A DNA stretch of 61,028 nt from the UHGV virus genome UHGV-0011871. One strand, written 5' to 3'. The notes beneath the pieces are model-generated. The model searched no databases, was not told the DNA's origin, and saw only the letters and a program-made list of their open reading frames with translations. The position numbers were made by a program, and so were the translations under genes. This stretch comes from a virus. Shown here one piece after another: positions 18,896 to 60,997 of this stretch. How positions within the stretch are numbered: the stretch's first letter is position 1; each line of letters begins with the position of its first letter.

Positions 18896-19330
18896 TTAGT
18901 TATCGTTTGCTTTGTTAATACGTTCCAGTAGCGCTGCCTTACGCTCTTCGAACGAAAGATCGCCACCGTTATTGATCGTTACCTCAGTATGCGTATCTAG
19001 GTCGCCAATACGCTTCAAGTAAACCTCGATGCCCCTTACCGAGCCACGCTCGATGGAGTCGATTAGTTTCTTGTAAACTAGCGCAAGGTGCGAATCCATG
19101 AACTCACTCGCTAAATAGTTCTTGTAGTTAATGAAGTTCGAATCCTTCGTATCCCAGTTATGCAATGTCTTCCGGCTGACACCGAGTTCTTCTGCGATTG
19201 CTTCCTTAGTCTTGCGTTGCCCTTTCGGCGTAAACTCGTATTCTACTAATGCTATCGCTGCTTCTCGTTGCTTCGGTAAGAACTTAGATTCATCGTATTT
19301 AAAGTTATGTTTGTTGCTCACGTTGTCCAC
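18896..19330 (-). CDS. terminase small subunit (HTH)
   Basis: 144 aa with an HTH ('EAIAEELGVSRKTLHNWDTKD'). It is the first gene of the structural operon, adjacent to a repeat-rich non-coding region. Confidence 0.6.
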   Translation of the reverse strand: MDNVSNKHNFKYDESKFLPKQREAAIALVEYEFTPKGQRKTKEAIAEELGVSRKTLHNWDTKDSNFINYKNYLASEFMDSHLALVYKKLIDSIERGSVRGIEVYLKRIGDLDTHTEVTINNGGDLSFEERKAALLERINKANDN

Positions 19331-19570
19331 CTCCTCGTTTTAATTTCGTACACTGCTTCGCCACCGTGGAACATGCGCCCCTTGACGTAAATTAATACGC
19401 CATGTTATCGTATGTATGTAAAATCCTCACGTAATGCCCATCGATTGCCCACCGTATTGCCCTCTCGTGGTCGACCCCGACCTTTGAAAATTTTGTAGGA
19501 ATTTTTCGGACACCCGGCAGCACGGGCGCAGGCTCGATATACCCCCGGGGGTTCACAAACCCAGTAATAC

Positions 19571-20300
19571 CAACGGTTTGACCCGTTTCCAGGCGTTTCC
19601 AACTAGCCATAAACTACGTTATGTAAACTAGACCGGAATGCCTCGAAGTGGCTTCGGCCTTACAGCCCCAACGGTTGCAGCCGTTTGCCCACCGAATCAT
19701 AATAACTTCCCATTGCGTATATACCCCTACCATACGGGACTATCGTACTATATCCGACACTATGCCCGAGTCAATACGTATACCCCCAATATCTGACGGA
19801 TGCCCGTCTGCTGAACGGTTTGCCCGATGTTTTGGCGTACATGACCGAGTGCCTATAGCGTACTCATACCATGCCCTGTACGTTGCCTATACGTGTAATA
19901 CCGTATACCGTATACCCTATCGATGCCCAAACGTCTTTTTTCGCCTTTAATAGAAGGAACTGGCACGGATACAACGAAGATCGACTATATATAACGTTAC
20001 ACAATCGCTGATATACCAACGGTTTAACACGTTTATATCGAGTGTTATTTATCGCTTATTTACTTGTGTTTTCTAGGTTGTCTATTGATACGAGCGAAGC
20101 GAAGTATAGTCTCTTATATACGTTGTTACCGTTGTATATACGTTAATACGTGTACAACCGTTGTCCCCGTTGACTTCTCAATATATAGTGGGACTACGCC
20201 GGTAAAATATAACCTATGGAACGAAAAAACTTTTTATTTTCGTAAAAAACGTGTAAAAACCCCGTCATATCAACGTTTGCAGCGTTTCATAAAACGTCGA
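19571..20300. repeat. dispersed AACGGTTT-N4-CGTTT repeats in the non-coding region upstream of terS
   Basis: Copies at 19571-19600, 19669-19690, 20017-20037, 20156-20175 and 20269-20300. Related copies at 196-262 and 60993-61020. Confidence 0.5.
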
Positions 20301-20439: not shown

Positions 20440-20469
20440 TTGACACGGTTTAAGAGTCGATGCTATACT
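20440..20469 (+). promoter_or_regulatory. early promoter P1 (TTGACA-N18-TATACT)
   Basis: The -35 is TTGACA at 20440-20445 and the -10 is TATACT at 20464-20469, with an upstream A-tract. Confidence 0.6.
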
Positions 20470-20770: not shown

Positions 20771-20800
20771 TTGACACGAAATTAGTGTCATGGTAAACTA
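20771..20800 (+). promoter_or_regulatory. early promoter P4 (TTGACA-N18-TAAACT)
   Basis: -35 at 20771-20776 and -10 at 20795-20800. Confidence 0.5.
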
Positions 20801-21156
20801 AGGTTACAACGTCACACAAGCCAAGCGAAGCAAGGTCACAACGTCACTAAGTTTCGATCTTTGACATAACCCTATATTCGGACTCTATCGAAGTGCTGAA
20901 TCCGACGACGAAAACAAGCGAACCCGCACGTTAACAAACGAGTGGCAAGCGGTAACTAGTCGACTACTACCCGAATGGATAGGCACTACTAAATCGTCCT
21001 TTATCGATAGCATGTTAAGCGAAGCGGAACCTTAAAGGTTGCGGTGACGGGCGGTAAAAAACCCCGAGCGACGGACTAAGGCTGAACAGATTTCGTGAAC
21101 ATGAAGTGCTTACCTCGTCTTTAAGCGAATGGGCTTACGAAAGGAGGGTCGATCTT

Positions 21157-21246
21157 ATGCAAAATAAGCGGATTTTTTACCTTGGGACTCGTGTATCAAT
21201 CGTAGTTAAGTCGAAGAACAAACGAAGAGGAGTGATAAACTGGTAA
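21157..21246 (+). CDS. possible leader peptide (29 aa) in the early leader
   Basis: A strong RBS (AAGGAGGG) sits 9 nt upstream of the ATG. Not in the ORF track (<60 aa). Confidence 0.25.
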   Translation: MQNKRIFYLGTRVSIVVKSKNKRRGVINW

Positions 21247-21337
21247 CGATACATCAAGCGGTTACATAACTAATCTATCGGATACCCCATTCGTTTAAAG
21301 ATGCGGTAAGTAAACATAAAATATGGAGGCGATACCT

Positions 21338-21565
21338 ATGAACAAACTAGAAGAACGAGTATTTGCAGCGTGTGCATGGAATCAAGCGAATGACAGCAAC
21401 GGTGAATTCCTGGAATTGTGGGCGGAGTATATCCGAGAGGAACTGACAATCGTACTACTAATAGACATCGTAAACAATGCGACAATGCAGGCATACGAGG
21501 ACTTATACACAAGCGGAAACATTGCGGATGCGAACGAAGTCAAAAAATATATCGTGGAGGTATGA
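21338..21565 (+). CDS. hypothetical early protein
   Basis: The ATG at 21338 has an RBS (TGGAGGCG); first gene of the early operon. Confidence 0.5.
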   Translation: MNKLEERVFAACAWNQANDSNGEFLELWAEYIREELTIVLLIDIVNNATMQAYEDLYTSGNIADANEVKKYIVEV

Positions 21566-21569
21566 GAAA

Positions 21570-21824
21570 ATGGAAAAACGGGAAGTGGTAGCGGTAATAA
21601 CGGTGACAAACGTATCGGCGGTGCTTATATACGAAGCCGAAAGCGACTATGTAGTAGCATCGTTGGCAGTAGGTGACTCGATTGACGAGCCGGAGACATA
21701 CGAGATTCAATACGAGTTACCCGAGGACGCAGACGAAGAGGACGAAGACATCGAATACGAGCCGGTATTCTACATGGGTGAATGGCGGATGTCACTGAAC
21801 CACGCAATGAGAGTACAAAGGTAG
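21570..21824 (+). CDS. hypothetical acidic early protein
   Basis: ATG at 21570 after a GGAGG; the protein is very acidic ('PEDADEEDEDIEYEP'). Confidence 0.5.
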   Translation: MEKREVVAVITVTNVSAVLIYEAESDYVVASLAVGDSIDEPETYEIQYELPEDADEEDEDIEYEPVFYMGEWRMSLNHAMRVQR

Positions 21825-21916
21825 CCACGCTGACGAGTCCTAGCGAGGACGAAACGGTCGACAAGACCGTCCGTGGATAGGTACCACGAACATTATACGA
21901 TAAGGGGACGATATAC

Positions 21917-22489
21917 ATGATTAGCGTAGCACTTACAAACTTAGGAAAATACAACGAAGGGACATTGGATTACGTATGGCTAGACTTACCGGCAACTGAC
22001 GAAGATATTGCGGAGGCATTCAAAACTATCGGAGTAGCTGACGGCACCGAATACGAGGAACATTTCTTGAGCGACTGGGACGCACCGGACTTCTTCGAAG
22101 TGGGTCAGTACTCGAGCGTGACAAAACTCAACGAATTAGCTGCAAAACTGGCGGAGATCGACGGCTTGGAGTCTATCTTTGACGGGACATACGAAGCAGG
22201 CGACATCGTAAACCTAGCCCACGAACTGGAAGCACAAGGACATATTCAAGATGCACACGACTATGTCGGGGACATCGTTTCAGACGAAGAACTTGACGAA
22301 ATGGTAAGACATGAGGCGGAATCAGGCGGATGGCAACGTGTGGCACACTTCCTAGACGGAATCAAATACATGTCGGAGGACTACTACTACATTAACGGAT
22401 ACGCAAACGCTGAGAACTTGTCGCAAGTCACGCTCGATGCAATCGTAGACGACATGATGAACGAAATAAAACGCAACTTAGAGGTATAA
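21917..22489 (+). CDS. ardA: ArdA-like anti-restriction protein (DNA mimic)
   Basis: The N-terminal 'LGKYNEGTLDYVWLDLPATDEDIAEAF...EEHFLSDWDAPDFF' matches the ArdA signature (KYN.G.L.G.WLDL ... D.EF ... F.DWEG.P). The protein is highly acidic. Confidence 0.7.
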   Translation: MISVALTNLGKYNEGTLDYVWLDLPATDEDIAEAFKTIGVADGTEYEEHFLSDWDAPDFFEVGQYSSVTKLNELAAKLAEIDGLESIFDGTYEAGDIVNLAHELEAQGHIQDAHDYVGDIVSDEELDEMVRHEAESGGWQRVAHFLDGIKYMSEDYYYINGYANAENLSQVTLDAIVDDMMNEIKRNLEV

Positions 22490-22584
22490 CAGGAGGCTTC
22501 CTGCCTCTTGCCGGACATCCGAAACGCTCGGGTACTCGGCAAGCGTTGGGAGGCGCTTATTAACTACGAAGGAGTGGAAACGAG

Positions 22585-22836
22585 ATGAACGAACTGACAA
22601 TAGTTGAGGAACTCGAGGACTTAGGTGTGCATGACGTGGAGGTCGAAAGCGTGGACGGTCACGCTGTTTACTACTACGGGATTCAATATGGAGTGCCTCA
22701 CGAATACAAGGCGGTAAGGTGCGACATGGCAGACGGTATCGAAATTTACCATCGGCATGAAGGCATGGAGGATTGGTACTACATGGTATTCATTGAAGAC
22801 GAAAACACTGAGGAGGACGATTGGGAATGGGAATGA
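22585..22836 (+). CDS. hypothetical acidic early protein
   Basis: 83 aa with an RBS (AAGGAGTGG). The C-terminus is 'EEDDWEWE'. Confidence 0.5.
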   Translation: MNELTIVEELEDLGVHDVEVESVDGHAVYYYGIQYGVPHEYKAVRCDMADGIEIYHRHEGMEDWYYMVFIEDENTEEDDWEWE

Positions 22837-23054
22837 TTAGCTGCGAATTCAAGACGGCACAAGAGGCGATTAGATACGCTCAGTCACACGGAGGATGGCT
22901 TTACTATCGATTGGAGGACGGTCACACGTTTTGGCACTGTCCGAGGACGTACATGATGCATGAAATTCTGCGGAAACATGCAGGCTCTGGCTACTGTAGT
23001 GCGTGGGTTGGTATGGAAGAATACGTAAACAATTTGGAGGCGAAATTATTATGA
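22827..23054 (+). CDS. hypothetical early protein
   Basis: ATG 10 nt after an AGGAGG; overlaps the upstream stop. Confidence 0.45.
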   Translation: MGMISCEFKTAQEAIRYAQSHGGWLYYRLEDGHTFWHCPRTYMMHEILRKHAGSGYCSAWVGMEEYVNNLEAKLL

Positions 23055-23587
23055 AAACAATCGTAAAAACATTCGAGGTATTCGAACTAAGCGAACTGAA
23101 AGGCGTGAACTACCGCAATGCGTTAGATGCGGTATCACGTCAGGCGTCCGAAGATTGGGCAGAATTTGAATCATACGAGTTGCTCGAGTCACTGAAAGAA
23201 TCTGCGGAACATTTCGGAATGAAAGTGACGGACTATTCCATCGGACTCTATGATCGATCTTACGTAAAAGTTGAGACAGGATACTTCGAAGAGGAACAGG
23301 CGGAACATGCAGTACAATGGATTGCGGATAACTACAAGGAAGGTGCGGACGGTACGTGTCCTTTCACTGGCGTATACTTCGATTGCTTCTTCTTCGACTA
23401 CTTCGTTAAGAACGGAGTACCAACGGAGGACAACGTCAAGGACGAGATTGTACGGGCAATCGGTTACATGCTCGAGACAGCCGTTGACAATGCCGAAAAA
23501 GATATGATGGACGATGACAGCCTATTGGACTACGCAATCAGCAATGAACTTTCTTTCTTATCAGACGGTGCAATTTATCACGGGTAA
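23051..23587 (+). CDS. hypothetical acidic early protein
   Basis: ATGA overlap with the upstream gene; RBS (GGAGGCG); 178 aa, acidic. Confidence 0.5.
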   Translation: MKTIVKTFEVFELSELKGVNYRNALDAVSRQASEDWAEFESYELLESLKESAEHFGMKVTDYSIGLYDRSYVKVETGYFEEEQAEHAVQWIADNYKEGADGTCPFTGVYFDCFFFDYFVKNGVPTEDNVKDEIVRAIGYMLETAVDNAEKDMMDDDSLLDYAISNELSFLSDGAIYHG

Positions 23588-23615
23588 CTGACACGAATTA
23601 TGAGTCGAATAAAAT
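23587..23615 (+). promoter_or_regulatory. internal early promoter P5 (CTGACA-N17-TAAAAT)
   Basis: Same family as P1-P4: 'CTGACACGAATTATGAGTCGAATAAAAT'. Confidence 0.45.
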
Positions 23616-23632
23616 AATCGGAGGCGGTAACA

Positions 23633-24085
23633 ATGAAAAAACAAAGATACTTTATACGAATCAAAGACGGCACACTTGGCGGAGAACGTGGACACATTTA
23701 CAAAGAGGCGACAAACGTCTTCCTTCCCGATGGCTTCGTAGCTTACACGAATGAATACAGTACGATGCCGGACGCTATCGAAGTGCATCCGGCAGACGAA
23801 CTCAGGGTAATTACGGCAGACCAATACAACCGAATTGCTGCCTGTGTCATGGAAGGTGTCGAAGCCGGACACGAAATCAAGGCGGTCATGGTTGCGGTAG
23901 AAGCCGAGGACAAAATCCTCGATAAAGTGGCGGAGTTTAAACGGGTAGCATCCGAGTTATACAGCCTGTGGGAACCCATTCCCTTCGCCTCTCCGGTTAA
24001 TCAACTACTAACCGATACGTACCCATTCGACAAGGATTTCCAGGAGGTTCTCGATGAAATTTGCAGGTGGGGAAATCGTAAGTAA
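23633..24085 (+). CDS. hypothetical early protein
   Basis: RBS (GGAGGCGG). Confidence 0.5.
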   Translation: MKKQRYFIRIKDGTLGGERGHIYKEATNVFLPDGFVAYTNEYSTMPDAIEVHPADELRVITADQYNRIAACVMEGVEAGHEIKAVMVAVEAEDKILDKVAEFKRVASELYSLWEPIPFASPVNQLLTDTYPFDKDFQEVLDEICRWGNRK

Positions 24086-24165
24086 TGCACGGGACTCCCG
24101 TCCCTTGTCTTGCGTCTGCTACGGCAGGCTCGAGCCAAGCGTTGGGAGGCGCTGAGAAATAATTG

Positions 24166-24194
24166 TTGACACGATATACGAGTCGTGATAATAT
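24166..24194 (+). promoter_or_regulatory. internal early promoter P6 (TTGACA-N17-TGnTAATAT, extended -10)
   Basis: 'TTGACACGATATACGAGTCGTGATAATAT' has the same -35-proximal 'TTGACACGA' and the 'GAGTCG' spacer core as P1-P5. Confidence 0.55.
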
Positions 24195-24228
24195 GTATTC
24201 AAGCGATCATAAACGAGGAGGAAACGAA

Positions 24229-24699
24229 ATGAAAAACGAAATGTACACTAGAGGGGTATTTACACCAACGGCACACGTTATCTGCTACAACTGCCACGAC
24301 ACAAGTTACAGACCATCCGATAAATTGGCGGACTCAAGCAAGCGACCATTGCAGGAAGGTAACGGGGTTACAAAGTGCGACATGTGCGGAACTGACATCC
24401 AGTTAGACTCAAGCGTAGCCGAGGAACATAATCTAGTAGCCGAGTTTAAAGCGCTAGGATTCGATGCGGTAATGGCACAAACTGGCGGTATGAATAGTGC
24501 ATGTGAGATTAATACGAAGGTTGAAGACGGTAAAATTATCGAATGGGTATCGATAACATTCGACTACTGCGGAGACTCGGAGTATGCAGCCTTGCACATT
24601 CTCGAGGAAGGCGACGACTGGGAGGACATCGTTTGTACTACGGACAAGGCGGAGTTTATGAAAGCTATCACGGAATTCGTGACGAAGGAGGAAAAGTAA
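24229..24699 (+). CDS. zinc-ribbon early protein
   Basis: ATG after a GGAGGAAACGAA RBS; CxxC ... CxxC. Confidence 0.5.
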   Translation: MKNEMYTRGVFTPTAHVICYNCHDTSYRPSDKLADSSKRPLQEGNGVTKCDMCGTDIQLDSSVAEEHNLVAEFKALGFDAVMAQTGGMNSACEINTKVEDGKIIEWVSITFDYCGDSEYAALHILEEGDDWEDIVCTTDKAEFMKAITEFVTKEEK

Positions 24700-25208
24700 T
24701 GATACTGAAAAGGTTTTATATAGACGGAATTGACGATAGCAACGCATTTTGGGGTTACTCAGTAGGCAAAACGTGGAACGGATGGGCGATGCCTTTGTTC
24801 TTGAAGGAACAAGCCGACAAGGTTGCGGAAGCATTCACCGCACAAGGCGATACTGTTACGTACAATCCACAAACGGATTCATTCATCGTATTACTGGACG
24901 GTGCTGACGAGTATGAAGTATTCAAAGGTGTCGAGATTGACGGGACAACGTACTACCCTATCGGAGCAGGCTCGTGGATATGGGACGAAGAGTACACGAA
25001 AGGCGAAGAACTTCGGGACTTCCGTAAGCATATGTACCATTCGGTCGAAACACTGCAAGACGAACTGGCCAGGCACGGGGACTACGATAACAGGTTCGAT
25101 CTTCACATCGAGTTAAACGGAAAACGTATATCACTGGAAATGTGTGCGGACTTGTACCATCGTTTAGGGAAATTCATTGACGAAACTATCGAGGAGGAAA
25201 GCGAATAA
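24699..25208 (+). CDS. hypothetical early protein
   Basis: TAATG overlap with the upstream gene; RBS (AGGAGGAAAAG). Confidence 0.5.
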   Translation: MILKRFYIDGIDDSNAFWGYSVGKTWNGWAMPLFLKEQADKVAEAFTAQGDTVTYNPQTDSFIVLLDGADEYEVFKGVEIDGTTYYPIGAGSWIWDEEYTKGEELRDFRKHMYHSVETLQDELARHGDYDNRFDLHIELNGKRISLEMCADLYHRLGKFIDETIEEESE

Positions 25209-25483
25209 TGAAAGCGAATCTGACAGCGTTTGGAATGCCAATACTGACGGGCCTACTGCTCGTCGGTCTTTGGATGAACGCACCGGACAGTGGGACGGAA
25301 TGCACCACGGCAGACTACGCTCACATCCCGTATGCCGAGTCTTTTGACTTCCGGTGTACCGAAGACACTATGACGGTTTACAATGCGGAGACGAGCGATG
25401 TAATAGCGACTGAGGCACGATGCAAAACGAACGAAGTTAAAGCCGAAGACGGCACATGTGTACCTGAGGACTTCTACGAATAA
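25208..25483 (+). CDS. small secreted / lipoprotein-like early protein
   Basis: N-terminal signal-like hydrophobic segment; four Cys. Confidence 0.45.
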   Translation: MKANLTAFGMPILTGLLLVGLWMNAPDSGTECTTADYAHIPYAESFDFRCTEDTMTVYNAETSDVIATEARCKTNEVKAEDGTCVPEDFYE

Positions 25484-25502
25484 ACGAAACGAGGCGATAA
25501 CA

Positions 25503-25691
25503 TTGTTAGTATTACTATTTTGGTTCCTCGGTGTTCCGGCAATCATATCGGTGATATGTACCCCGTGGAGAGGTTCCGACTTCCTAATTATGAGCCGGAT
25601 TAAAGCCGTATTCGAATATACAACGGTAGTAATGATGCTCGTAGGATTTATCATGATACTAGGATACTTTGAAGCAAATATGAGAGGATGA
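25503..25691 (+). CDS. small membrane protein
   Basis: TTG start after a GAGGCG; two TM helices. Confidence 0.35.
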   Translation: MLVLLFWFLGVPAIISVICTPWRGSDFLIMSRIKAVFEYTTVVMMLVGFIMILGYFEANMRG

Positions 25692-25697
25692 TAGACG

Positions 25698-26021
25698 ATG
25701 GCAATGAGTAAACGGGACTATGCGGAGTTACTGCGTGACGCTTCGCAATCGATGATGGACGTTGTTAAGGCGATAGACAAACTGTACTATGACGTAGAGC
25801 CACTGGACGACTATAAGGAGTTTGAAGACGAATTGAATCAGACGGCTAAGAGTGCGATTGAGGACGCAATCAACGTACGTCAGATGTTCAAGCGACTAAT
25901 CACACTCGAGGACTTAGCGTTGAAAGTCGATGCAGTAGCCGATCACCTGCATTTAAGTGCCGGAGAAAACGAATACAACGGCGAACTGGACACGGGAATA
26001 CCGTGGAAGAACGAAGATTGA
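25698..26021 (+). CDS. hypothetical early protein
   Basis: RBS (GAGAGGA). Confidence 0.45.
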   Translation: MAMSKRDYAELLRDASQSMMDVVKAIDKLYYDVEPLDDYKEFEDELNQTAKSAIEDAINVRQMFKRLITLEDLALKVDAVADHLHLSAGENEYNGELDTGIPWKNED

Positions 26022-26118
26022 CGGGCATGTCTCCCGTCCCTTGTATAGCATCCGAGCCACCCGTTCGGACGTTATCCAAGCGTTAGGAGACGCTTATAAA
26101 ACACGAGGAGGAATCGTA

Positions 26119-26409
26119 ATGACAACGACTACTAAACAGGAAGCATTTATCACGGAACTTCGCCTGACTGCGATAGCTTTGCAGAAAGCAATCCCGACTA
26201 TGGATGAACTGAACGGGAGATTGTACGAACTGACTCACGAATACGAGCACGAAGTCAATCGGCTTCCCGAGCATGACGAGCAACTGATTCTCGAAGCAAA
26301 GGAAATGTTCATGAACCTTCCGGTGTGGTCAACAATGACAGACGTAGCTAACGGACTTGTCGATCTTGTCAACGATTTAGAAGCGAAGCAAGGCGAAGGC
26401 AAGCAATGA
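26119..26409 (+). CDS. hypothetical early protein
   Basis: ATG after a CGAGGAGGAATCG. Confidence 0.45.
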   Translation: MTTTTKQEAFITELRLTAIALQKAIPTMDELNGRLYELTHEYEHEVNRLPEHDEQLILEAKEMFMNLPVWSTMTDVANGLVDLVNDLEAKQGEGKQ

Positions 26410-26615
26410 CACTAGCCGATAAGATACGGGCACAAGCACGGGTTAAGGCGGTCGAGATACCGCCCCCTGGGGCTACCCAACGATGCAAAGACGCACTAGA
26501 CACGTACTTTTTCGGAGGGACACCGTGCAAGTCCGATGCCTTATGGTTCTACGGATTCGCTACGTTAGCCCTCGTAACAATAATTTTACTCGGCACGATT
26601 AACGTGCTATTATAG
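26406..26615 (+). CDS. small membrane protein
   Basis: ATGA overlap with the upstream gene; C-terminal TM helix. Confidence 0.4.
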   Translation: MTLADKIRAQARVKAVEIPPPGATQRCKDALDTYFFGGTPCKSDALWFYGFATLALVTIILLGTINVLL

Positions 26616-26618
26616 GAG

Positions 26619-26876
26619 GTGACATGCATTATGGGAGTGAAACAATTGATTCAATCTAACCTGAAAGAACTGTTACACGCTAGACGGCTGACGATTCGTG
26701 AGTTCTCACGTATGATCGACTACCGATTCGAGTCTGTACGTCAACTGTATAACAACGAATCCAAGCAGGTTCCGCTAGCCCTAGTCGAACGGGTTTGTTT
26801 GGAACTTCGCATAACTCCGGGCGAACTATTCACGGTGATAGACGCTAACGGAGAGGCAATACAACCGAAGCACTAA
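26619..26876 (+). CDS. XRE-family HTH transcriptional regulator
   Basis: 'LTIREFSRMIDYRFESVRQLYNNESKQVPLALVERVCLELRITPGELF' is a typical HTH_3 fold; RBS (AGGAGGTG). Confidence 0.6.
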   Translation: MTCIMGVKQLIQSNLKELLHARRLTIREFSRMIDYRFESVRQLYNNESKQVPLALVERVCLELRITPGELFTVIDANGEAIQPKH

Positions 26877-26903
26877 ATCATACGAACAAACGGAGGGGAA
26901 ACG

Positions 26904-27080
26904 ATGCAAGAGTACATGATAGGAACGCATAAGTTCGAATGTAACGATGAAACCGAGGCGTTACGTATAGCAAAGCGTACCATGTTCGAAAAAGGATGGC
27001 GCAATCTTCGCTTATTGCGAAAAGAAACTGACGGATGGAACGTATGCCAAGTGATACCTAGCTTCAATACTAATCGATAA
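26904..27080 (+). CDS. hypothetical small protein (58 aa)
   Basis: Not in the ORF track. RBS (GGAGGGG), 4 nt spacer, then ATG. Confidence 0.35.
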   Translation: MQEYMIGTHKFECNDETEALRIAKRTMFEKGWRNLRLLRKETDGWNVCQVIPSFNTNR

Positions 27081-27102
27081 AAACAAAAGGGGAGAAAACA
27101 AA

Positions 27103-27681
27103 ATGGCAAAAGCAGAAAAAGTAAAGAAACCGTTCTACAAAAAATGGTGGGTATGGGTACTCGCAATTATCGTTATAGCTGCATTCGCAGGTGGTGGCGA
27201 GGAAGCCGAGGAAACATCCACGTCCAATCAAACGAACCAAAAAGAGGAAAAAGCGAGTAAGAAAGAGGAAGTCGTAGGCATGGGCGAAGCGATTAAAGTC
27301 GGTGACGTTGTATTCACGGTACACGGCAAGGAAACAGCGAAGACAATCGGCGATCAATACGTAGGGCAAGACGCACAAGGAACGTATCTAATACTCGATG
27401 TCACGGTTAAGAACGAAGGCAAAGAAGCGATAACAACCGATTCATCGTTCTTCAAACTGAAAGCAGGCGAATCGACTTACGACTCAGACGGGACAGCCGA
27501 CATGTATATCAACGATGCAAACAATATGTTCTTCCTCGCTAAAGTAAATCCAGGCAACGAGACACGAGGCAAGATAGCATTCGATGTCAACGATGCAGTT
27601 ATCAACGCTACTGATACGGTAGTCAACGTACAAACGGGTGCCTTCGGTACCGAACAAGCGCAAATTAAAATCGCTGAATAA
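27103..27681 (+). CDS. DUF4352-like membrane-anchored protein
   Basis: N-terminal TM helix followed by a beta-rich domain with 'VGDVVFTVHG...YLILDVTVKNEGKEA...', resembling DUF4352. Confidence 0.5.
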   Translation: MAKAEKVKKPFYKKWWVWVLAIIVIAAFAGGGEEAEETSTSNQTNQKEEKASKKEEVVGMGEAIKVGDVVFTVHGKETAKTIGDQYVGQDAQGTYLILDVTVKNEGKEAITTDSSFFKLKAGESTYDSDGTADMYINDANNMFFLAKVNPGNETRGKIAFDVNDAVINATDTVVNVQTGAFGTEQAQIKIAE

Positions 27682-27693
27682 CGCAAAAAAAAT

Positions 27694-27727
27694 GCCCTCC
27701 GTCCAATCGACGGGGGCTTTCTTCTTA
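27694..27727. terminator. bidirectional rho-independent terminator
   Basis: 'GCCCTCCGTCcaatcGACGGGGGC' hairpin flanked by an A8 run upstream and TTTCTTCTT downstream, between convergent genes. Confidence 0.65.
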
Positions 27728-27745
27728 TCATGGCGTGATACCACG

Positions 27746-28171
27746 TCACCAACTATTATGAAACGACCTAGTATTCGGTGTGTAGTCCGTTCCATCGGTC
27801 GCTACGTTGACACCGTGAGTGATTGGCACTTCGTACGTAACTACTCCTGCCTTGTTCTTCTTACGCTCGGAGCCTTGCGTACGTACCTTGTACATTCTCT
27901 CGGACATTATCGGGTACTCCTCGAGCGTCATTTTGTCAGGATGTGAGTCTGATAATTCTTCGTGCAGAATCACGTTAGCCAGTCGCTCAAGCAACGGCCC
28001 GTCAGGTGTTTTTCCCGTCTGCTCTACGTATGCATCCGTCAAATCTTCGACCATTTGCATACGGGCATCCCGAGGAACCTCACCTACGGACTGTTCTAGT
28101 TGCTGTACGTACTCTTCCATTCTCGACTTATAGTTAACACCAAAGCTGTATTGATTAGTTGACATATTCAA
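27746..28171 (-). CDS. hypothetical protein
   Basis: 141-aa ORF; last gene of the leftward replication-module transcripts. Confidence 0.4.
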   Translation of the reverse strand: MNMSTNQYSFGVNYKSRMEEYVQQLEQSVGEVPRDARMQMVEDLTDAYVEQTGKTPDGPLLERLANVILHEELSDSHPDKMTLEEYPIMSERMYKVRTQGSERKKNKAGVVTYEVPITHGVNVATDGTDYTPNTRSFHNSW

Positions 28172-28493
28172 GCGCCTCCCACTCTTCGTATATGTTCGCG
28201 ATCTTCTTTATTGCAGTTGCTACGTGCTTTGTAATCATTGGCTGACTAACTCCCATACGTTGGGCGGTATCCTCTTGACCTAAGTCATAACGGAAATATA
28301 GCGACAAGGCTTCACGCTGCTTATCCGTCAAGTCAGCCAGTTCGATTGCACGGTCAAGCGTCATTAACTCGTCGGCTAGGTGCCACTTACCTGCGTACAT
28401 TTTCTTCTCATTTAAATCCTCGTAACCTTCTAGTAATGCTTTTACATAAATCTCGTGTTTTGTTAATGTCATTGACAACGGACTTCCTCTCAT
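28155..28493 (-). CDS. ArpU/sigma-region-4-like transcriptional regulator
   Basis: 'LTDKQREALSLYFRYDLGQEDTAQRMGVSQPMITKHVATAIKKI' is a sigma-70 region-4 / ArpU-type HTH. Confidence 0.5.
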   Translation of the reverse strand: MRGSPLSMTLTKHEIYVKALLEGYEDLNEKKMYAGKWHLADELMTLDRAIELADLTDKQREALSLYFRYDLGQEDTAQRMGVSQPMITKHVATAIKKIANIYEEWEALEYVN

Positions 28494-28525
28494 AGTAAGA
28501 TGTGCTAAAGGAGTGTGATTTTTTT

Positions 28526-28918
28526 ATGACTGGTAAGACGAAACAAAGCGAAACGTTTTCATGGATTTCGAATAAATCCGCAGTAGCTTACGTGACTATC
28601 GATAACCTACGAAGACTATACATTTCCAAACCGACTAAGGAACTCATGGGATTACCCGATGGAAAGTTCCGCCTCATTGCCGGATACGATTTCGCCAACA
28701 ACCGCATAGTATTGGCAAAGCCGGAAGTCGTCCGTGTGTCAGACGTGAAGCCGTTCAACTTCGACAAGCGAGGCTACTCGAATGCGAAGCATTTCGTAGA
28801 ACGTGCTAACCTTACGACCTTGCCGATTCGCTTTCTCTACAAAGGTAAAGATTATAGCGAGTACCCTGACGGTGCTTATTGCTTCGAACTAGACGGCTCA
28901 ACTCCCGAGGATCGGTAA
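28526..28918 (+). CDS. hypothetical protein
   Basis: ATG after an AAAGGAGTG; a lone plus-strand gene. Confidence 0.4.
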   Translation: MTGKTKQSETFSWISNKSAVAYVTIDNLRRLYISKPTKELMGLPDGKFRLIAGYDFANNRIVLAKPEVVRVSDVKPFNFDKRGYSNAKHFVERANLTTLPIRFLYKGKDYSEYPDGAYCFELDGSTPEDR

Positions 28919-30223
28919 CAGACGCTCGCCTAACGCTTTGATAACAGGGACACTGACAGCGTTGCCTGCCATCTTGTATCGTTGAGAATCGCTTATGCCT
29001 GCGTCTACAATCGTCTGATGCACCTCGTCCGAGAATCCTTGCAATCGGAAGCACTCGAGAGGCGTTAGCTTACGGATACGATATTTAGGCTCAGGCTCTA
29101 CAATGTGCGTCCTGCGTCCCTTTCCGACTAGGCTCGGGGCAGTACCCTTCCAGTAATTAGCGTCAAGGCAGCACGACACGCCTTCGCCTTCGGAGAACTG
29201 CTCGACGTTTCCTTTCAGTACCATCGAGTCTTTCGTAACGGACGTGACCGTGTTTCCTACGTCGTCCTTACGTATCTCTAGCTGTTCGCCTTGACCACGA
29301 TAGTTCCGGCTCCTGGTCGAACATCCTTTGACTTCCTCGGCTTGCTCGGCTTGCTCGGCTTTCTCGAGTACCGACGGCAAGTGACCACCTCCGGCTGACG
29401 TTCGGATAGTTGGCGATTCCCCATCGAATAACCTCGGCTTATCTTCCTTGAATCCTCCGTAGATATTGTGGATGCATTTCGGTGTATTTGCCGTGTCCTG
29501 CTCGTCTAGCTTCGCAACTAACTCCGCAACCTTTTCGTCAGGCAGGTAATACTTTTCGTCCACTACCGGCTCGAGAACATCGATCAGCTTAACTGTGACT
29601 TCCTCTTGCTCGGGCCAGTCGAAGTTAAACGTCTTGATTCCTTCGTATCCCATTATCCTGCGTTTCCCCTTCGGTACTACCTTCGAACCTTTCGTATTAA
29701 CCCACTCTTCGTTTTCGATTAAATCCTCACGTACAGCTACGCAGAACCACCTCTCACGATTCTGAGGAACTCCGAAGAATTTAGAGTTTAGAACCTCGAA
29801 GTCCACTCGATACCCTATATCGTTCAATGTCTTGACAATCGTATCTAACGTCTTTCCTTTGTCGTGAGATATTAAGCCTTTGACATTTTCTAGCAACGCC
29901 ACCCTTGGCTGCTTCTCTTTTAAGATTCGTGCGACCTCGAAAAACATCGTCCCTCTAGTATCTTCGAATCCTCCCCGTTTGCCTGCGACCGAGAACGGCT
30001 GACACGGTATTCCTGCCGTTAACAAGTCGTGGTCCGGCACGTCTGCTTCGTTTATCTTCGTTATATCTCCGTGTAAATGTTCCCCACCGTATATAGCTTC
30101 GTACGCCTTCGATGCATACTTATCGATTTCGGAAGCCATTACACATTCTCCACCTAACTGATTTAACGCTTGCTCGAATCCGCCCGTCCCAGAAAAGCAT
30201 GATACATACTTGAATTTACTCAT
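28898..30223 (-). CDS. DNA (cytosine-5)-methyltransferase
   Basis: Motif I 'FSGTGGFEQAL', motif IV 'PCQPFSVAGKRGG', motif VI 'ENVKGL' and C-terminal 'QRYKMAGNAVSVPV'. Start taken at the internal ATG with an AAAGGGGA RBS. Confidence 0.85.
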   Translation of the reverse strand: MSKFKYVSCFSGTGGFEQALNQLGGECVMASEIDKYASKAYEAIYGGEHLHGDITKINEADVPDHDLLTAGIPCQPFSVAGKRGGFEDTRGTMFFEVARILKEKQPRVALLENVKGLISHDKGKTLDTIVKTLNDIGYRVDFEVLNSKFFGVPQNRERWFCVAVREDLIENEEWVNTKGSKVVPKGKRRIMGYEGIKTFNFDWPEQEEVTVKLIDVLEPVVDEKYYLPDEKVAELVAKLDEQDTANTPKCIHNIYGGFKEDKPRLFDGESPTIRTSAGGGHLPSVLEKAEQAEQAEEVKGCSTRSRNYRGQGEQLEIRKDDVGNTVTSVTKDSMVLKGNVEQFSEGEGVSCCLDANYWKGTAPSLVGKGRRTHIVEPEPKYRIRKLTPLECFRLQGFSDEVHQTIVDAGISDSQRYKMAGNAVSVPVIKALGERLLPILGS

Positions 30224-30858
30224 ATTATCGTCCCCTTTCGTGACGTTTTCGTCACACAATCCGCATCTTCCCATCCTCGGTACTTCCGAGAACATGCCGT
30301 CTTATAGTTGACTCCGAACTCTTCGCACCAATCCTTCGCATGTTTTGTGACTCCATCGATTGTTATGTGCCATGCGTAATCTCGGTTCCTACTTTGCTCT
30401 ACGTTAGTAACCCATCGACAATTATCCGGCTCATATCCTCGTGCATTGTCCTTCCGATCAATCGTTAATTTATCGGTATAGCCATTAGTTACCGACCAAT
30501 CTCGGAATGCCTCGTAGCTTTTACTCCACTCCTCAGATAACATAATGCCTTTCGCCCCGTAACTCTCGTAGTTGGGGGAGTTAGGGTTCTCGCACCTCGT
30601 TTTTATATTCGTCCATATGCTGTACAGACGAGTTCCTGCTTCTCCATGCGTTCGCATAAGGGATGCGGTATTCTCTACTCGCTTACATCCGCAACTTTTC
30701 GTCTTGCCCTGACGCAGATTGCCTATGTGAAAGTTCTTAACCGTACCGCAGCTACATCGGCACTTGTATACCGAGGAGCCTGGACTTGACTCCACGAACT
30801 CAAGTACGGTTAACTCTCCGAATACTTTTCCGATATTCCTCTCACGCCCGTAAGCCAT
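30220..30858 (-). CDS. Zn-ribbon protein with conserved phage W/Y-rich C-terminal domain (often annotated AP2/HNH-associated)
   Basis: 'CRCSCG..CGC' ribbon, then 'YSIWTNIKTRCENPNSPNYESYGAKGI...LTIDRKDNARGYEPDNCRWVTNVEQSRN'. ATGA-coupled to the methyltransferase. Confidence 0.4.
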   Translation of the reverse strand: MAYGRERNIGKVFGELTVLEFVESSPGSSVYKCRCSCGTVKNFHIGNLRQGKTKSCGCKRVENTASLMRTHGEAGTRLYSIWTNIKTRCENPNSPNYESYGAKGIMLSEEWSKSYEAFRDWSVTNGYTDKLTIDRKDNARGYEPDNCRWVTNVEQSRNRDYAWHITIDGVTKHAKDWCEEFGVNYKTACSRKYRGWEDADCVTKTSRKGTII

Positions 30859-36657: not shown

Positions 36658-36710
36658 CCTCCCTTACTTACTAATAGACCATTTCAGCCGTTTCGTGGAC
36701 CATGTTTTAC
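36658..36710 (-). promoter_or_regulatory. conserved phage motif, copy A (putative middle/late promoter or operator)
   Basis: 'CCCTTACTTACTAATAGACCA-N14-TGGACCATG' overlaps the RBS of the downstream minus-strand gene. Confidence 0.45.
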
Positions 36711-43838: not shown

Positions 43839-43890
43839 GCCTTACACTTACTAATAGACCATTTTGAGTGTTTCGTGGACCACGTTTTAC
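43839..43890 (-). promoter_or_regulatory. conserved phage motif, copy B
   Basis: 'CCTTACACTTACTAATAGACCA-N14-TGGACCACGTTTT', between the polA stop and the KVGD-repeat gene. Confidence 0.45.
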
Positions 43891-51342: not shown

Positions 51343-51395
51343 GCCTTACACTTACTAATAGACCAAAACTGTAAGTGTGTGGACCACGTTTTTAA
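51343..51395 (-). promoter_or_regulatory. conserved phage motif, copy C
   Basis: Same motif, upstream of the sigma-like gene and divergent from the XRE gene. A partial extra copy lies at 51421-51443. Confidence 0.45.
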
Positions 51396-52706: not shown

Positions 52707-54095
52707 TTAGAACTGGGAGGCGATTGCCATAGCTTCACTTTCGTCTAGCGTAATTTCCTGTATGATTCCATACTGCGGAAGGTAGATTATTTCAGCGAAT
52801 TGGCCTTCTCCACCGTCACGTCCCTTGCTTAGACCTACGAGTCCTCGACCTTCGAGGTAATTCGTATCGACTCCGATCAATAACGCAGCATCCTGCAATA
52901 GCTGTTTCGTTTTGCTGACTTCCTTACGTTTAGGCAGGCGTAACTCTCGATTGCCGTCTTCGTCCTCTGCTTCCTCTGTTTCATCTGCTTGCGTAATCGC
53001 TAGTACAGTTACGTCAGTCGTACCGGCTAGCCTACGTAGCTTCTTCGAGGTATTCTCAGCGTCTCCGCCCGTCTTCTTAGATGTGTTTGCTTCATAGTCG
53101 AGATAGTAGAACGGGTCGATCAGCACCACGTCAGCTTCCGTCTGAATGATTTCGGCTTCCAGTGCTCGCAATGATCGCTCAGTAAAGTCGTGGTCGTCTA
53201 CGCCCCTTACGATGATGTTTCCGGCTAGCGTGTCGTTAATGTTACGTACGAACTCGAAGAACTTTTCTTCGAAGTCCTCAGGCAATTTACCTTGTCGCAT
53301 GTCCCTCGAATTAAAGCCCACGTCCATATCTACACCGTTGATTTCCGCAGTAGCCACGTCTCCGACTGCCTGCGATAGCATCGTAAAGATACGAACAAGC
53401 ACCTCGTACCATCCCATTTCCATCGACCATATCAGAACGTTAGCGCCCTGCATCGCTAGATTAAGAGCCTCACGTAACGCTACTGCCGACTTACCTCGAC
53501 CTGACTTACCGTAGATAACGTACACGTTCGATGATACATAGCCGCCCGTTGCACTGTTAATCTTCGGCAGGAACGAATCCCATACTTTGTACGTCTCGCC
53601 TTTCTTGCGATTCTCGTATTCTTCGAGGATTCTCTCGGAGTCGTGTTTCACGTCGGTTCCTAGCTTACCTCGAACACCTGTTCTCATTTTAACATTTTGA
53701 AGTTCCTCTATCAACAAATCAATGGCAACATTTCCATCTTTTTCATTTAGGATGTCTTCGAACGTCGGTTTCGTCGGCTTGCCCCGATCATCCGGCTTAC
53801 CTTCGAGAATGTCGATGATTCCCTTCTTAGCTGCGAATGATTTTAACTCCTGGACCATATATCGGTAGCTGTCCGTAACTCCCTCACGGTAATAGAAGTC
53901 GGGATATTTCTCGACAACTGTCCGGTAGTCAGGCGTTTGGTGCTTATTTGATTTCGAATACTCGATGATGAAATCGTACACGTCACGCTCGGCTTTGGTC
54001 GGGAAGTCCGAACGGTCAACGTTGAACTCCCGAATAGCCATCGTATTGCCATCGTCTAATACTCGTGATAGAAACTGCTCTCCGTAGTTTGGCAT
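52707..54095 (-). CDS. replicative DNA helicase (DnaB-like)
   Basis: Walker A 'GKSGRGKSAVAL'; a RecA-like C-terminal domain; 'LAGTTDVTVLAITQ'. Confidence 0.7.
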   Translation of the reverse strand: MPNYGEQFLSRVLDDGNTMAIREFNVDRSDFPTKAERDVYDFIIEYSKSNKHQTPDYRTVVEKYPDFYYREGVTDSYRYMVQELKSFAAKKGIIDILEGKPDDRGKPTKPTFEDILNEKDGNVAIDLLIEELQNVKMRTGVRGKLGTDVKHDSERILEEYENRKKGETYKVWDSFLPKINSATGGYVSSNVYVIYGKSGRGKSAVALREALNLAMQGANVLIWSMEMGWYEVLVRIFTMLSQAVGDVATAEINGVDMDVGFNSRDMRQGKLPEDFEEKFFEFVRNINDTLAGNIIVRGVDDHDFTERSLRALEAEIIQTEADVVLIDPFYYLDYEANTSKKTGGDAENTSKKLRRLAGTTDVTVLAITQADETEEAEDEDGNRELRLPKRKEVSKTKQLLQDAALLIGVDTNYLEGRGLVGLSKGRDGGEGQFAEIIYLPQYGIIQEITLDESEAMAIASQF

Positions 54096-59564: not shown

Positions 59565-59612
59565 CCTTACACTTACTAATAGACCAAAATGTTCATTTCG
59601 TGGACCACGATT
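59565..59612 (-). promoter_or_regulatory. conserved phage motif, copy D
   Basis: Same motif, 5 nt from the RBS of the replisome-organiser gene. Confidence 0.45.
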
Positions 59613-59904: not shown

Positions 59905-59940
59905 ATCGCTGACCTCGACGGGTTAGCGATCTTTTCGTTT
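59905..59940. terminator. bidirectional rho-independent terminator
   Basis: An A8 run, then hairpin 'ATCGCTGACCtcgacgGGTTAGCGAT', then 'CTTTTCGTTT', between convergent genes. Confidence 0.65.
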
Positions 59941-60997
59941 AAAACAATTTTTCAATCGGACTGAAACGCTTATGTGCGGTTGTAACATCGTCGCTGAATA
60001 AGTTAACGTAATTACGAACCATTTCCAATGAAGTATGCCCGAGCACTTTTTGAAGCGAGAATACATCGGCTCCATTTTGTACGGACATCTTGGCGAAGGT
60101 ATGCCGGAATGTATGCGGACTGCATCGGACTCCTTTTATGTCTGCCATACGTCCATACTTCGCTATTCGGTTTTGTAATTGCCGAATGGTTATCGGTGTA
60201 TTATCGACGGTTACGAACAATGCCTCGTTTGGCGTGTCGCCCCGTACGGTTATGTATTTCTTTAGTTGTCTTTTCACGGTGGACTGAATCGGCACCAATC
60301 GCTCTTTGTAGCCTTTACCGTTGATACGAATTTGTCCGTCTTCCCATCGAATATCCTTTAATGTAACTTCGACTAACTCTCGAGCACGTATGCCGGTTTC
60401 CAATAGCAATAGGATTATCGTATAATCACGGAATCCCGTAAATGTGCCCTGGTCGGGCTGCCGGAGTATGTCGTGTATCTGCTCTCGGGTGAACGTCTCT
60501 ACGACTTCCTTTTTCGCTTTGACTAGCTTCAATTCTGCCAACGGGTTTTCTCCGATCATTCCGTCTTTCTCAAGGAAATTAAAGAATGCACGGATGGCCC
60601 GAAGCCTCGTATTGATTGTCGTCTCCTTCAAGCCTAAATCATCGAGCATGTAAAGTATGACGTTTTCCCGTAGGACATCGATAGTCATTTGATTAGGTCG
60701 GGTACTCACCTTCTGAGCCTCGAGAATCCCTCGTAATGACTTCAATTCGTTCCGGTAATACTTTAGGGTATGGTCGCTCAAATTACGTGCCCTAGCGTCC
60801 TTTAGAAAGCGTGTGAGACACACGTCAAAGTCTTCGCATTGGTCGTCAATATCACGTACTTTCGCTGCCCTCGAACTCACTTTTAACGTATTACTACGCC
60901 TTGCCATCGTCGAACCAACTCCCTCTATTCGTGAAATCAGTTCGCACGATTTAATCGTACGACAAAAAACAGCCAAAACTCGAAGTTTGCCCGTCAT
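59939..60997 (-). CDS. int: tyrosine recombinase / integrase
   Basis: C-terminal catalytic region '...RHTFAKMSVQNGADVFSLQKVLGHTSLEMVRNYVNL' carries the R..H..R..Y signature. SAM-like N-terminal domain. Confidence 0.8.
   Translation of the reverse strand: MTGKLRVLAVFCRTIKSCELISRIEGVGSTMARRSNTLKVSSRAAKVRDIDDQCEDFDVCLTRFLKDARARNLSDHTLKYYRNELKSLRGILEAQKVSTRPNQMTIDVLRENVILYMLDDLGLKETTINTRLRAIRAFFNFLEKDGMIGENPLAELKLVKAKKEVVETFTREQIHDILRQPDQGTFTGFRDYTIILLLLETGIRARELVEVTLKDIRWEDGQIRINGKGYKERLVPIQSTVKRQLKKYITVRGDTPNEALFVTVDNTPITIRQLQNRIAKYGRMADIKGVRCSPHTFRHTFAKMSVQNGADVFSLQKVLGHTSLEMVRNYVNLFSDDVTTAHKRFSPIEKLF

Follow-up and report, generated by a model that had tools for sequence, protein, structure and literature searches.

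Organization of the Operon

The 61,028-nucleotide viral genome UHGV-0011871 (the window, in what follows, is this whole stretch of DNA) carries on its + strand, at positions 21338–27681, a run of 17 open reading frames (ORFs), g1–g17, nearly all of which are preceded by a GGAGG-type Shine-Dalgarno sequence. Four tandem promoters precede this operon, whose third gene encodes an ArdA-like protein, the fifteenth a helix-turn-helix (HTH) protein and the last a membrane-anchored protein. In the leader, a 29-codon ORF (g0, 21157–21246, +) that would encode a basic peptide is preceded by the region's best Shine-Dalgarno site (AAAGGAGGG), so that the operon has 17 genes, or 17–18 if this putative gene is counted.

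The signs of the GC and AT skews flip exactly across the 20–28 kb block, and outside it all genes lie on the − strand, with 28502–28918 (+) as the sole exception. Eleven operon genes are also found in a metagenomic contig, L007. Because their ratios of nonsynonymous to synonymous substitution rates (dN/dS) against this contig fall between 0.06 and 0.43, these eleven are, on sequence grounds, genuine coding genes under purifying selection.

A preliminary description of the locus, made from the sequence alone, had spoken of about 18 small, mostly acidic proteins, and the composition of the products agrees with it. The isoelectric point (pI) is below 5 for 12 of the 17 products, as compared to 36% of the 67 other ORFs (Fisher p = 0.013), and the mean net charge per residue is −0.085 in the operon vs −0.027 in the other ORFs (Mann-Whitney p = 0.011); against the 42 other ORFs of 200 aa or less, whose mean charge is −0.028 per residue, p = 0.021. 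The extremes of net charge are g3 (−34), g6 (−24), g4 (−22) and g2 (−17). Four products, g10, g11, g14 and g17, contain hydrophobic segments and look membrane-associated. The same description had seen Zn ribbons in several neighbors of the ArdA-like gene, which was not borne out: the four-Cys zinc-ribbon pattern occurs in g8 only, and g9 has a single Cys.

An intrinsic terminator-like hairpin (27696–27716, +; 8 bp stem with 6 GC pairs and a T-rich tail) lies between g17 and the convergent − strand gene 27746–28171, and a weaker terminator-like hairpin is found 3′ of g7 (24089–24104, +). When the window was scanned with Rfam and for tRNA genes, no match was obtained.

Promoters, Operator Motif and Leader

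The four tandem promoters (P1–P4, 20421–20800, +) are of the sigma-A type, with −35 hexamers that begin at 20440, 20544, 20663 and 20771, i.e., at a spacing of 104–119 nt. Each is composed of an A-rich upstream tract, TTGACA, a spacer of 17–18 nt and a TG-extended −10 element. Two promoters of the same family are internal to the operon, Pint1 (23588–23615, +) ahead of g7 and Pint2 (24166–24194, +) ahead of g8. When both strands of the whole window were scanned for the consensus, the three top sites were those at 20440, 20544 and 20663, while the next rank was shared by 20771, 24166 and a − strand site at 53714. The "strongest promoters in the genome" and the two internal promoters of the preliminary description were thus both confirmed at the level of sequence.

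All six promoters contain the motif TGACACG-N6-GNGTC, which, with no mismatch allowed, is found exactly there and at no other place in the 61 kb; with one mismatch permitted there were 9 matches, vs 1.3 expected by chance. The copy in P4 is a perfect palindrome, TGACAC-N7-GTGTCA (site sequence TGACACGAAATTAGTGTCA). This operator-like palindrome (of the GACACG-N5-CGTGTC type) overlaps the −35 hexamer and the spacer of the six promoters. A scan of IMG/VR with the promoter motif found nothing.

The leader between P4 and g1 (20800–21337, +) is about 540 nt long, has no Rfam match and does not fold into a significant RNA structure (z = 0.89). Two 16-nt direct repeats, 20800–20815 (AAGGTTACAACGTCAC) and 20832–20847 (AAGGTCACAACGTCAC), lie 32 nt apart at its start, directly 3′ of P4. 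On the other side of the promoter array, a − strand promoter-like site at 19774 (TTGACT-16-TATAGT) is accompanied by a one-mismatch copy of the early operator at 19756–19773. The 1-kb non-coding stretch between terS and the array (19330–20300) is dense in direct repeats (of the AACGGTTT..CCGTTT type, families D4 and D5) and also holds inverted ones; this stretch may serve as a packaging (pac/cos) site or as some other protein-binding array.

The ArdA-Like Protein g3

The preliminary description had assigned g3 (21917–22489, +; 190 aa, pI 4.05, 22.6% Asp+Glu) to ArdA, and the database searches, together with the strongly negative charge, support this assignment. The Pfam ArdA model (PF07275), whose cut-off is 27 bits, gives g3 a score of 73.4 (E = 4e-20), residues 7–129 being aligned to positions 4–123 of the 155 in the model, and there is a match to phrog_2059, "anti-restriction protein" (1.4e-10). 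With phmmer, residues 3–81 align to positions 5–76 of the solved ArdA protein ORF18 (2w82; E = 2.8e-8), including the GKYNEG and DY/W..P motifs. Both the N-terminal and the central ArdA domains are present, and over its full length g3 is 44% identical to gp4 of Bacillus phage Mgbh1.

By these matches g3 belongs to the ArdA family, and the blocking of type I restriction-modification enzymes is its predicted activity. It resembles ORF18 of Tn916 in that it passes the family threshold, aligns to the N-terminal domain, is very acidic, and would be encoded in the DNA first expressed after entry, as far as this timing can be inferred. It differs from ORF18 in length (190 vs 165 aa) and in its last 60–70 residues, which could not be aligned to the canonical third domain and are common only to Mgbh1 gp4 and its close relatives. 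In ArdA, this third, C-terminal domain forms the dimer interface.

A Conserved Slot with Exchanged Cargo

The operon occupies a slot, between late-regulator genes and terS, that is shared across related phages. These relatives keep tandem promoters and a terminal HTH gene in the slot and exchange almost all of the cargo; the operator motif is also kept, in L007 and in the virus genome L023 described below. In Mgbh1 the genome order is the same, with homologues of 27746–28171 and 28155–28493 on one flank of the slot and terS on the other. Mgbh1 shares 27 of the 67 other ORFs vs 1 of the 17 operon genes, namely the ArdA gene (p = 0.008), and its operon is oriented opposite to that of the window, being co-directional with the late genes. 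The Mgbh1 early genes besides ArdA, including the so-called "ocr-like" gp5, showed no relation to any gene here, even with the profiles of g6, g7 and g9.

The contig L007 (4.4 kb) is syntenic with the window from ArdA to g16 and keeps both internal promoters. It lacks g4 and g13, carries an unrelated 97-aa gene at the position of g8, behind the retained Pint2, and has an extra gene before g12. The dS values between the window and L007 range from 0.17 to 1.34 across genes, a spread that indicates a mosaic history. Positive selection on ArdA, g5 and g7 was considered and rejected: dN/dS is about 0.25, and the high divergence of these genes comes with saturated dS, which indicates the replacement of alleles by recombination.

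Two further relatives, L023 and L025, were obtained by a scan of IMG/VR with the terminase (large terminase 79% and 69% identical, respectively), and both carry an inverted operon in the same slot. The operon of L023 comprises two tandem promoters with the perfect palindrome GACACG-N5-CGTGTC and about 18 ORFs, of which those for g4 (35% identical), g6, g10, the HTH protein and a g14-like protein (recognized by eye, not by search) are shared; neither ArdA nor DUF4352 is encoded. In L025, three tandem promoters of a variant type are followed by ArdA as the first gene, four uncharacterised genes and the HTH gene as the last. Ten cargo proteins of these two genomes gave no match to a known family, except for one match to Phage_L5_gp82.

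The one constant gene of the slot is that of the HTH protein, g15 (26631–26876, +; 81 aa), which is present in L007, L023 and L025; an HTH gene was found in every relative having this promoter family. The product is of the Cro/C1 type (PF13443, HTH_26; 42.3 bits vs a cut-off of 22, E = 9e-11) and probably starts at 26631, as in the L007 relative. It is Cro-sized and has no C-terminal oligomerisation or cleavage domain. This protein is probably the one that binds the operator in the six promoters, and we treat it as the candidate for that role.

The Membrane-Anchored Protein g17

The last gene, g17 (27103–27681, +), encodes a protein of 192 aa in which a hydrophobic stretch near residues 11–35, the N-terminal transmembrane anchor, is followed by an acidic linker of some 23 residues and by a DUF4352 domain (PF11611, phrog_806) at residues 59–164 (85.3 bits vs a cut-off of 25.9, E = 5e-24), just as the preliminary description had proposed. 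In near and distant DNA searches of phage records, a 65% identical DUF4352 stretch in Geobacillus phage D6E was the only relative of the operon. PADLOC, run on the distal genes including g17, gave no match to a defense system.

The membrane DUF4352 protein Mpr of M. smegmatis degrades incoming phage DNA and confers phage resistance, and the phage-encoded DUF4352 proteins have been reported from temperate phages (PMC12596739); the link made in the literature, with experiments on phage resistance at the membrane, is to defense or exclusion, not to counter-defense. Like Mpr (PMC12596739, PMC9262609), g17 has a membrane anchor and a DUF4352 domain, but it leaves no room for the N-terminal nuclease region that has been reported for Mpr, meaning that only an analogy is justified; the host phylum differs, too. 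By this analogy, g17 and the other distal membrane proteins would act at the envelope, possibly excluding other phages.

The Uncharacterised Products

Pfam and PHROGs were searched with all 17 products, and NCBIfam with the 10 uncharacterised ones. Neither Ocr nor any other known anti-defense family was found besides ArdA; a function-bearing or named family was otherwise matched only by g15 (HTH) and g17 (DUF4352), and several products matched PHROGs without an assigned function. When all 17 products were compared by phmmer to all PDB sequences, at E up to 5, ArdA was the sole match, and the family profiles of g6, g7 and g9 retrieved nothing significant from the PDB. Confident AlphaFold models of g6 and g9 (predicted local distance difference test score of 87 for g9) had no relative among solved structures in a fold search. 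The earlier view that only one gene of the operon is recognizable is therefore right insofar as ArdA is the sole known counter-defense gene, but not for g15, which is recognizable as a Cro/C1-type HTH protein.

The product of g1 (21338–21565, +; 75 aa, pI 4.1) matches phrog_9995 weakly, and that of g2 (21570–21824, +; 84 aa, pI 4.05, 26% Asp+Glu) matches phrog_17101, a family without an assigned function. On the distal side of g3 lies g4 (22585–22836, +), encoding 83 aa with a pI of 4.05, 30% Asp+Glu and 13% Trp+Tyr. The near-neutral, Cys/His-rich g5 (22833–23054, +) has 73 aa, or 77 aa from a TTG at 22821; its start is probably at 22833, as in the L007 relative.

The homologues of g6 (23051–23587, +), like those of g9, map to early or terminal-repeat regions of large phages of Bacillus and Staphylococcus, within the Herelleviridae. 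Those of g6 occur among the terminal-repeat-encoded (Tre) genes of Twortvirinae phages; scans of IMG/VR with g6 and of GTDB with the g6 family found nothing. The 150-aa product of g7 (23633–24085, +) is a two-module protein from a rare family, with 18 representatives, the query included, among 1.8 billion proteins; two long proteins on the same list, P0060 and P0061, were set aside as likely low-complexity artifacts. A metagenomic protein of 135 aa, P0065, combines the C-terminal module of g7 (W..YPF..DF.E...W) with one resembling that at the C-terminus of g9 (RFDL.IEL.G.RI.L....Y.RL..FID..IEEE), which suggests that these modules are shuffled and perhaps cooperate.

In g8 (24229–24699, +; 156 aa), an N-terminal CxxC...CxxC zinc-ribbon pattern is followed by an acidic C-terminal domain. 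A metagenomic protein of 764 aa, P0001, ends in a region homologous to the core of g8, and a further homologue is encoded by a Peribacillus plasmid. A search with concatenated g6–g9 was less sensitive than those with single proteins and yielded only P0001, for g8.

The 169-aa product of g9 (24699–25208, +) consists of an N-terminal domain of about 100 aa (phrog_9945), with invariant WNGWA.P and YPIGAGSWIW motifs, and of a C-terminal helical module (phrog_26644). The N-terminal family is found in Bastille-like Bacillus phages, on conjugative Burkholderiales plasmids and in other mobile-element regions, with a DNA methyltransferase gene within 10 kb in 5 of the 9 contexts examined. A GTDB scan with the g9 family retrieved 4 loci only, and a scan of JGI metagenomes with g9 found nothing. 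The homologues in Bacillus phage Bc431v3 lie amid small genes, several of which are annotated with their own SigA-type promoter. There, two adjacent g9 paralogues, orf052 and orf051 (L015, 5333–6495), each have such an annotated promoter and are flanked by 39-nt repeats.

Among the distal genes, g10 (25208–25483, +; 91 aa) encodes a protein with 4 Cys whose N-terminus carries a hydrophobic anchor or signal, and g11 (25458–25691, +; at most 77 aa) one with two predicted transmembrane segments and an uncertain start codon (62 aa in L007). The products of g12 (25698–26021, +; 107 aa) and g13 (26119–26409, +; 96 aa) are both acidic; g12 is 91% identical in L007 and has a sub-threshold, weak match to a coiled-coil family, while g13 has no clear L007 counterpart. 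A C-terminal membrane anchor is present in g14 (26406–26615, +; 69 aa). The basic, 58-aa product of g16 (26904–27080, +) has counterparts, at about 60% identity, in B. subtilis phages (FADO, 279BB001) and on a B. thuringiensis plasmid.

The Phage and Its Neighboring Genes

The window is an almost complete genome of a Bacillaceae-type siphophage. The large terminase shows 60% identity with its counterparts in the B. cereus phages phBC6A51 and PHBA67-T and 54% with the Mgbh1 protein; a DNA-level search of phage records returned no similar genome. The genome encodes an endolysin, both terminase subunits (terS/terL), a family A DNA polymerase, a DnaB-like helicase, DnaC/DnaD-like loaders and a ribonucleotide reductase. 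A tyrosine integrase (59939–60997, −), with a Phage_integrase domain and a SAM-like N-terminal domain, is 50% identical to that of Mgbh1, in which a putative attP has been reported beside the integrase gene (PMC5135824). Because of the integrase and of the putative attP in Mgbh1, the lineage looks temperate.

A small sigma-70 region 4-like protein (28155–28493, −; phrog_3512, "sigma factor") and its downstream partner (27746–28171, −) form a pair that is kept in Mgbh1 (gp79 and gp80), L023 and L025. Without the inserted operon, this pair would adjoin terS on the upstream side, like the late-gene activators of Firmicutes phages. The lone + strand gene outside the operon, 28502–28918 (phrog_18159), has its own promoter at 28472 (TTGACA-18-TAAGAT) and is kept beside the late-regulator gene in L023 and L062. 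Its 3′ end overlaps that of a convergent gene just outside the operon, 28898–30295 (−), which encodes a C5 cytosine DNA methyltransferase (465 aa, E = 1e-88). Judged by this family match, the methyltransferase is a second, modification-based route of restriction evasion.

Four exact copies of TGGTCTATTAGTAAGT are present on the − strand (36666–36681, 43846–43861, 51350–51365 and 59571–59586), vs 0.47 expected by chance. Each lies within a conserved block of about 50 nt, AAAACGTGGTCCACGAAA-N12-TGGTCTATTAGTAAGTGTAAGG, which is intergenic and upstream of − strand gene blocks. These blocks make up a second promoter-like family, unlike the sigma-A consensus, and are candidate middle promoters. From the presence of such a separate − strand family it would follow that the next stage of transcription depends on an early product; switching on that stage may be an alternative job for some of the uncharacterised operon genes.

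Interpretation of the Operon

The explanation we favor, and which we consider probable albeit with some reserve, is that the block serves a Bacillaceae siphophage, whose temperate lineage has Mgbh1 and phBC6A51 as relatives, as an entry-phase (immediate-early), self-limiting accessory operon. On our best reading, it mixes anti-restriction, uncharacterised takeover or counter-defense candidates, regulation and envelope proteins. Upon entry of the DNA, host sigma-A RNA polymerase would fire from the four tandem near-consensus promoters, reinforced by the two internal ones, and transcription of the 17–18 small genes would run to the terminator at 27696–27716. The DNA mimic g3 would block type I restriction-modification enzymes, while g1, g2, g4, g6–g9, g12 and g13 would be interchangeable, acidic, soluble cargo, probably binding and neutralizing host proteins, either defense or takeover targets. 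Finally, g15 would bind the palindromic operator and shut the six promoters, thereby limiting expression to a pulse, and g17 and the other distal membrane proteins would do their work at the envelope. The genes, the promoters, the motif, the homologies and the variability of the slot are observed; the time of expression and the action of g15 on the operator are inferred, as are all functions beyond the membership of g3 in the ArdA family.

Several observations weigh against this explanation. Early expression is plausible from the type of promoter alone, and the link between g15 and the operator consists in the co-occurrence of motif and HTH protein in the window, L007 and L023, with no covariation. 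The enrichment in acidic products is moderate only (p about 0.01–0.02). ArdA is the sole recognized anti-defense gene in the operon; the last 60–70 residues of g3 cannot be aligned to canonical ArdA, the PDB alignment covering the N-terminal domain only, and, by the gene content of L023, ArdA is dispensable for the chassis, which L023 has without it. Moreover, the integrase, the orientation of the operon opposite to nearly all other genes, and the HTH and candidate exclusion proteins at its end also resemble a module expressed in lysogeny.

The preliminary description had called the locus a probable anti-defense island, and in its strict form, with most of the acidic products (g1, g2, g4, g6–g9, g12 and g13) each inhibiting a distinct bacterial defense system, we find this rather unlikely. 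The description was right in that a strongly promoted operon carries a bona fide ArdA gene and that its other soluble members are uncharacterised; the island as such, however, rests on one gene, and the distal half of the operon encodes a regulator and membrane proteins, not products that look like DNA mimics. The clustering of the genes with ArdA behind entry-type promoters, the turnover of cargo within a fixed slot, and the relatives of g8 and g9 on plasmids (conjugative ones for g9), with g9 members near DNA methyltransferases, all speak for such an island, as do the acidic composition and the fact that nothing matched housekeeping families. The homologues of g6 and g9 in the early regions of Herelleviridae are circumstantial evidence in the same direction. 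On the other hand, no similarity to a known anti-defense protein beyond ArdA appeared in the sequence searches or in the folds of g6 and g9, and the L023 chassis contains no recognizable anti-defense gene at all. Two or more recognized anti-defense genes side by side were not found: there is ArdA only, and the C5 methyltransferase gene is outside the operon. The description had also named, as an outcome that would count against it, the assignment of the small proteins to ordinary replication or regulatory families by structure searches, together with a failure of all of them to neutralize a defense system. For the two modeled proteins, g6 and g9, no such assignment resulted, and none of the uncharacterised soluble members matched a replication or enzymatic family.

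The same features suit host-shutoff proteins equally well, small acidic early proteins being equally typical of host-takeover functions. It is possible, though we doubt it, that apart from ArdA the operon is a generic takeover module akin to the early regions of SPO1 and T7: its small proteins would divert or stop transcription, replication or division in the host and activate the middle genes of the phage. The g6 homologues in the terminal-repeat (early takeover) region of Twortvirinae fit this account, as does the use of the genome's best sigma-A consensus promoters for the operon (the − strand site at 53714 tying for fourth), and the four − strand promoters of the non-sigma-A-like family imply an early-encoded factor. 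Yet the searches of Pfam, PHROGs and NCBIfam linked none of the products to known proteins that bind RNA polymerase or act as sigma or anti-sigma factors, and genes essential to a transcription cascade would be expected to be conserved, whereas almost all the cargo is exchanged and only g15 is constant.

An improbable reading, in our judgment, is that of an immunity or moron region expressed in lysogeny, with g15 as the repressor, g17 and the membrane proteins as agents of superinfection exclusion, and the rest as lysogenic-conversion cargo. Apart from the integrase, whose Mgbh1 counterpart lies next to a putative attP, and the orientation of the block opposite to the lytic genes, this reading draws on the known DUF4352 proteins, which in phages are reported from temperate ones and also include the host resistance protein (PMC12596739). 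No Cro/CI-type repressor other than g15 was found among roughly 30 window genes scanned. The numeric prefix in the uncultivated virus genome (UViG) name of L023 resembles what we take to be isolate-genome taxon IDs, which, from this reading of the name only, would suggest a prophage. But constitutive expression of 17 genes from four tandem near-consensus promoters would burden the cell heavily, an operator in all six promoters suggests that they are normally shut, and ArdA is useful only at the entry of DNA. In addition, the small size of g15, without a C-terminal domain for oligomerisation or cleavage, is that of Cro, and the equivalent operon of Mgbh1 runs in the direction of the late genes.

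Relation to Known Systems and Significance

The accessory operon, as we interpret it, belongs by analogy to a known kind, together with the T7 early region, the takeover modules of Herelleviridae, the leading regions of plasmids and the pLS20 establishment operon, and not to a new one. In T7, the tandem host promoters A1–A3 are followed by gene 0.3 (Ocr) and the other class I genes. The likeness lies in the strong tandem promoters for host RNA polymerase that head a leftmost early operon of small genes, with a DNA-mimic type I inhibitor among the first products and with the other small genes directed, presumably here as well, at the host. The differences are that ArdA takes the place of Ocr, that there is no phage RNA polymerase or kinase, and that here an operator and a Cro-like HTH protein (which suggest autoregulation), a Gram-positive host, a temperate lineage and hypervariable cargo are found.

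The Herelleviridae modules (SPO1, Twort-like Tre) sit within the long terminal repeats of phages of more than 130 kb, and many of their genes have a promoter to themselves. They share with the present operon small, mostly uncharacterised genes behind sigma-A promoters, as well as the homologues of g6 among Tre genes and of g9 in Bc431v3; in the 61-kb siphophage, by contrast, the genes form one operon. Anti-defense islands are also known from the leading regions of conjugative plasmids (Samuel et al. 2024, PMC11541004; cf. the pLS20 establishment operon, PMC8708921). The resemblance to these consists in an ArdA gene amid many small uncharacterised genes in the entry-expressed part, and in the presence of the g9 domain family on conjugative plasmids, too. 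The present element differs from them in being a phage with double-stranded sigma-A promoters instead of single-strand promoters, and in lacking markers of the SSB, PsiB and ParB type.

What is new here is the operator-like motif embedded in the promoters, the conserved chassis with exchanged cargo, and the contexts of the g6 and g9 homologues; the operon alone reveals no new mechanism. A bolder proposal, which we offer tentatively and regard as rather unlikely, is that the slot is a "plug-in" expression chassis (tandem sigma-A promoters, palindromic operator and terminal Cro-like autoregulator) with swapped counter-defense cargo, and that at least one structurally orphan family (candidates being the WNGW/YPIGAGSWIW domain of g9 and g6) is a new class of defense inhibitors shared by phages and other mobile elements.

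For a search for new inhibitors of bacterial immunity, early operons that include a recognized anti-restriction gene rank among the more promising places. The candidates here are g6 and g9, which combine confidently predicted folds lacking a solved relative with a family distribution over unrelated mobile elements; g2 and g4, for their extreme acidity; and g8, as a module of a giant multidomain protein. The regulatory hypothesis is testable with one protein and one 17-bp site, and the chassis with its exchangeable cargo could serve to mine cargo genes from relatives of this phage.

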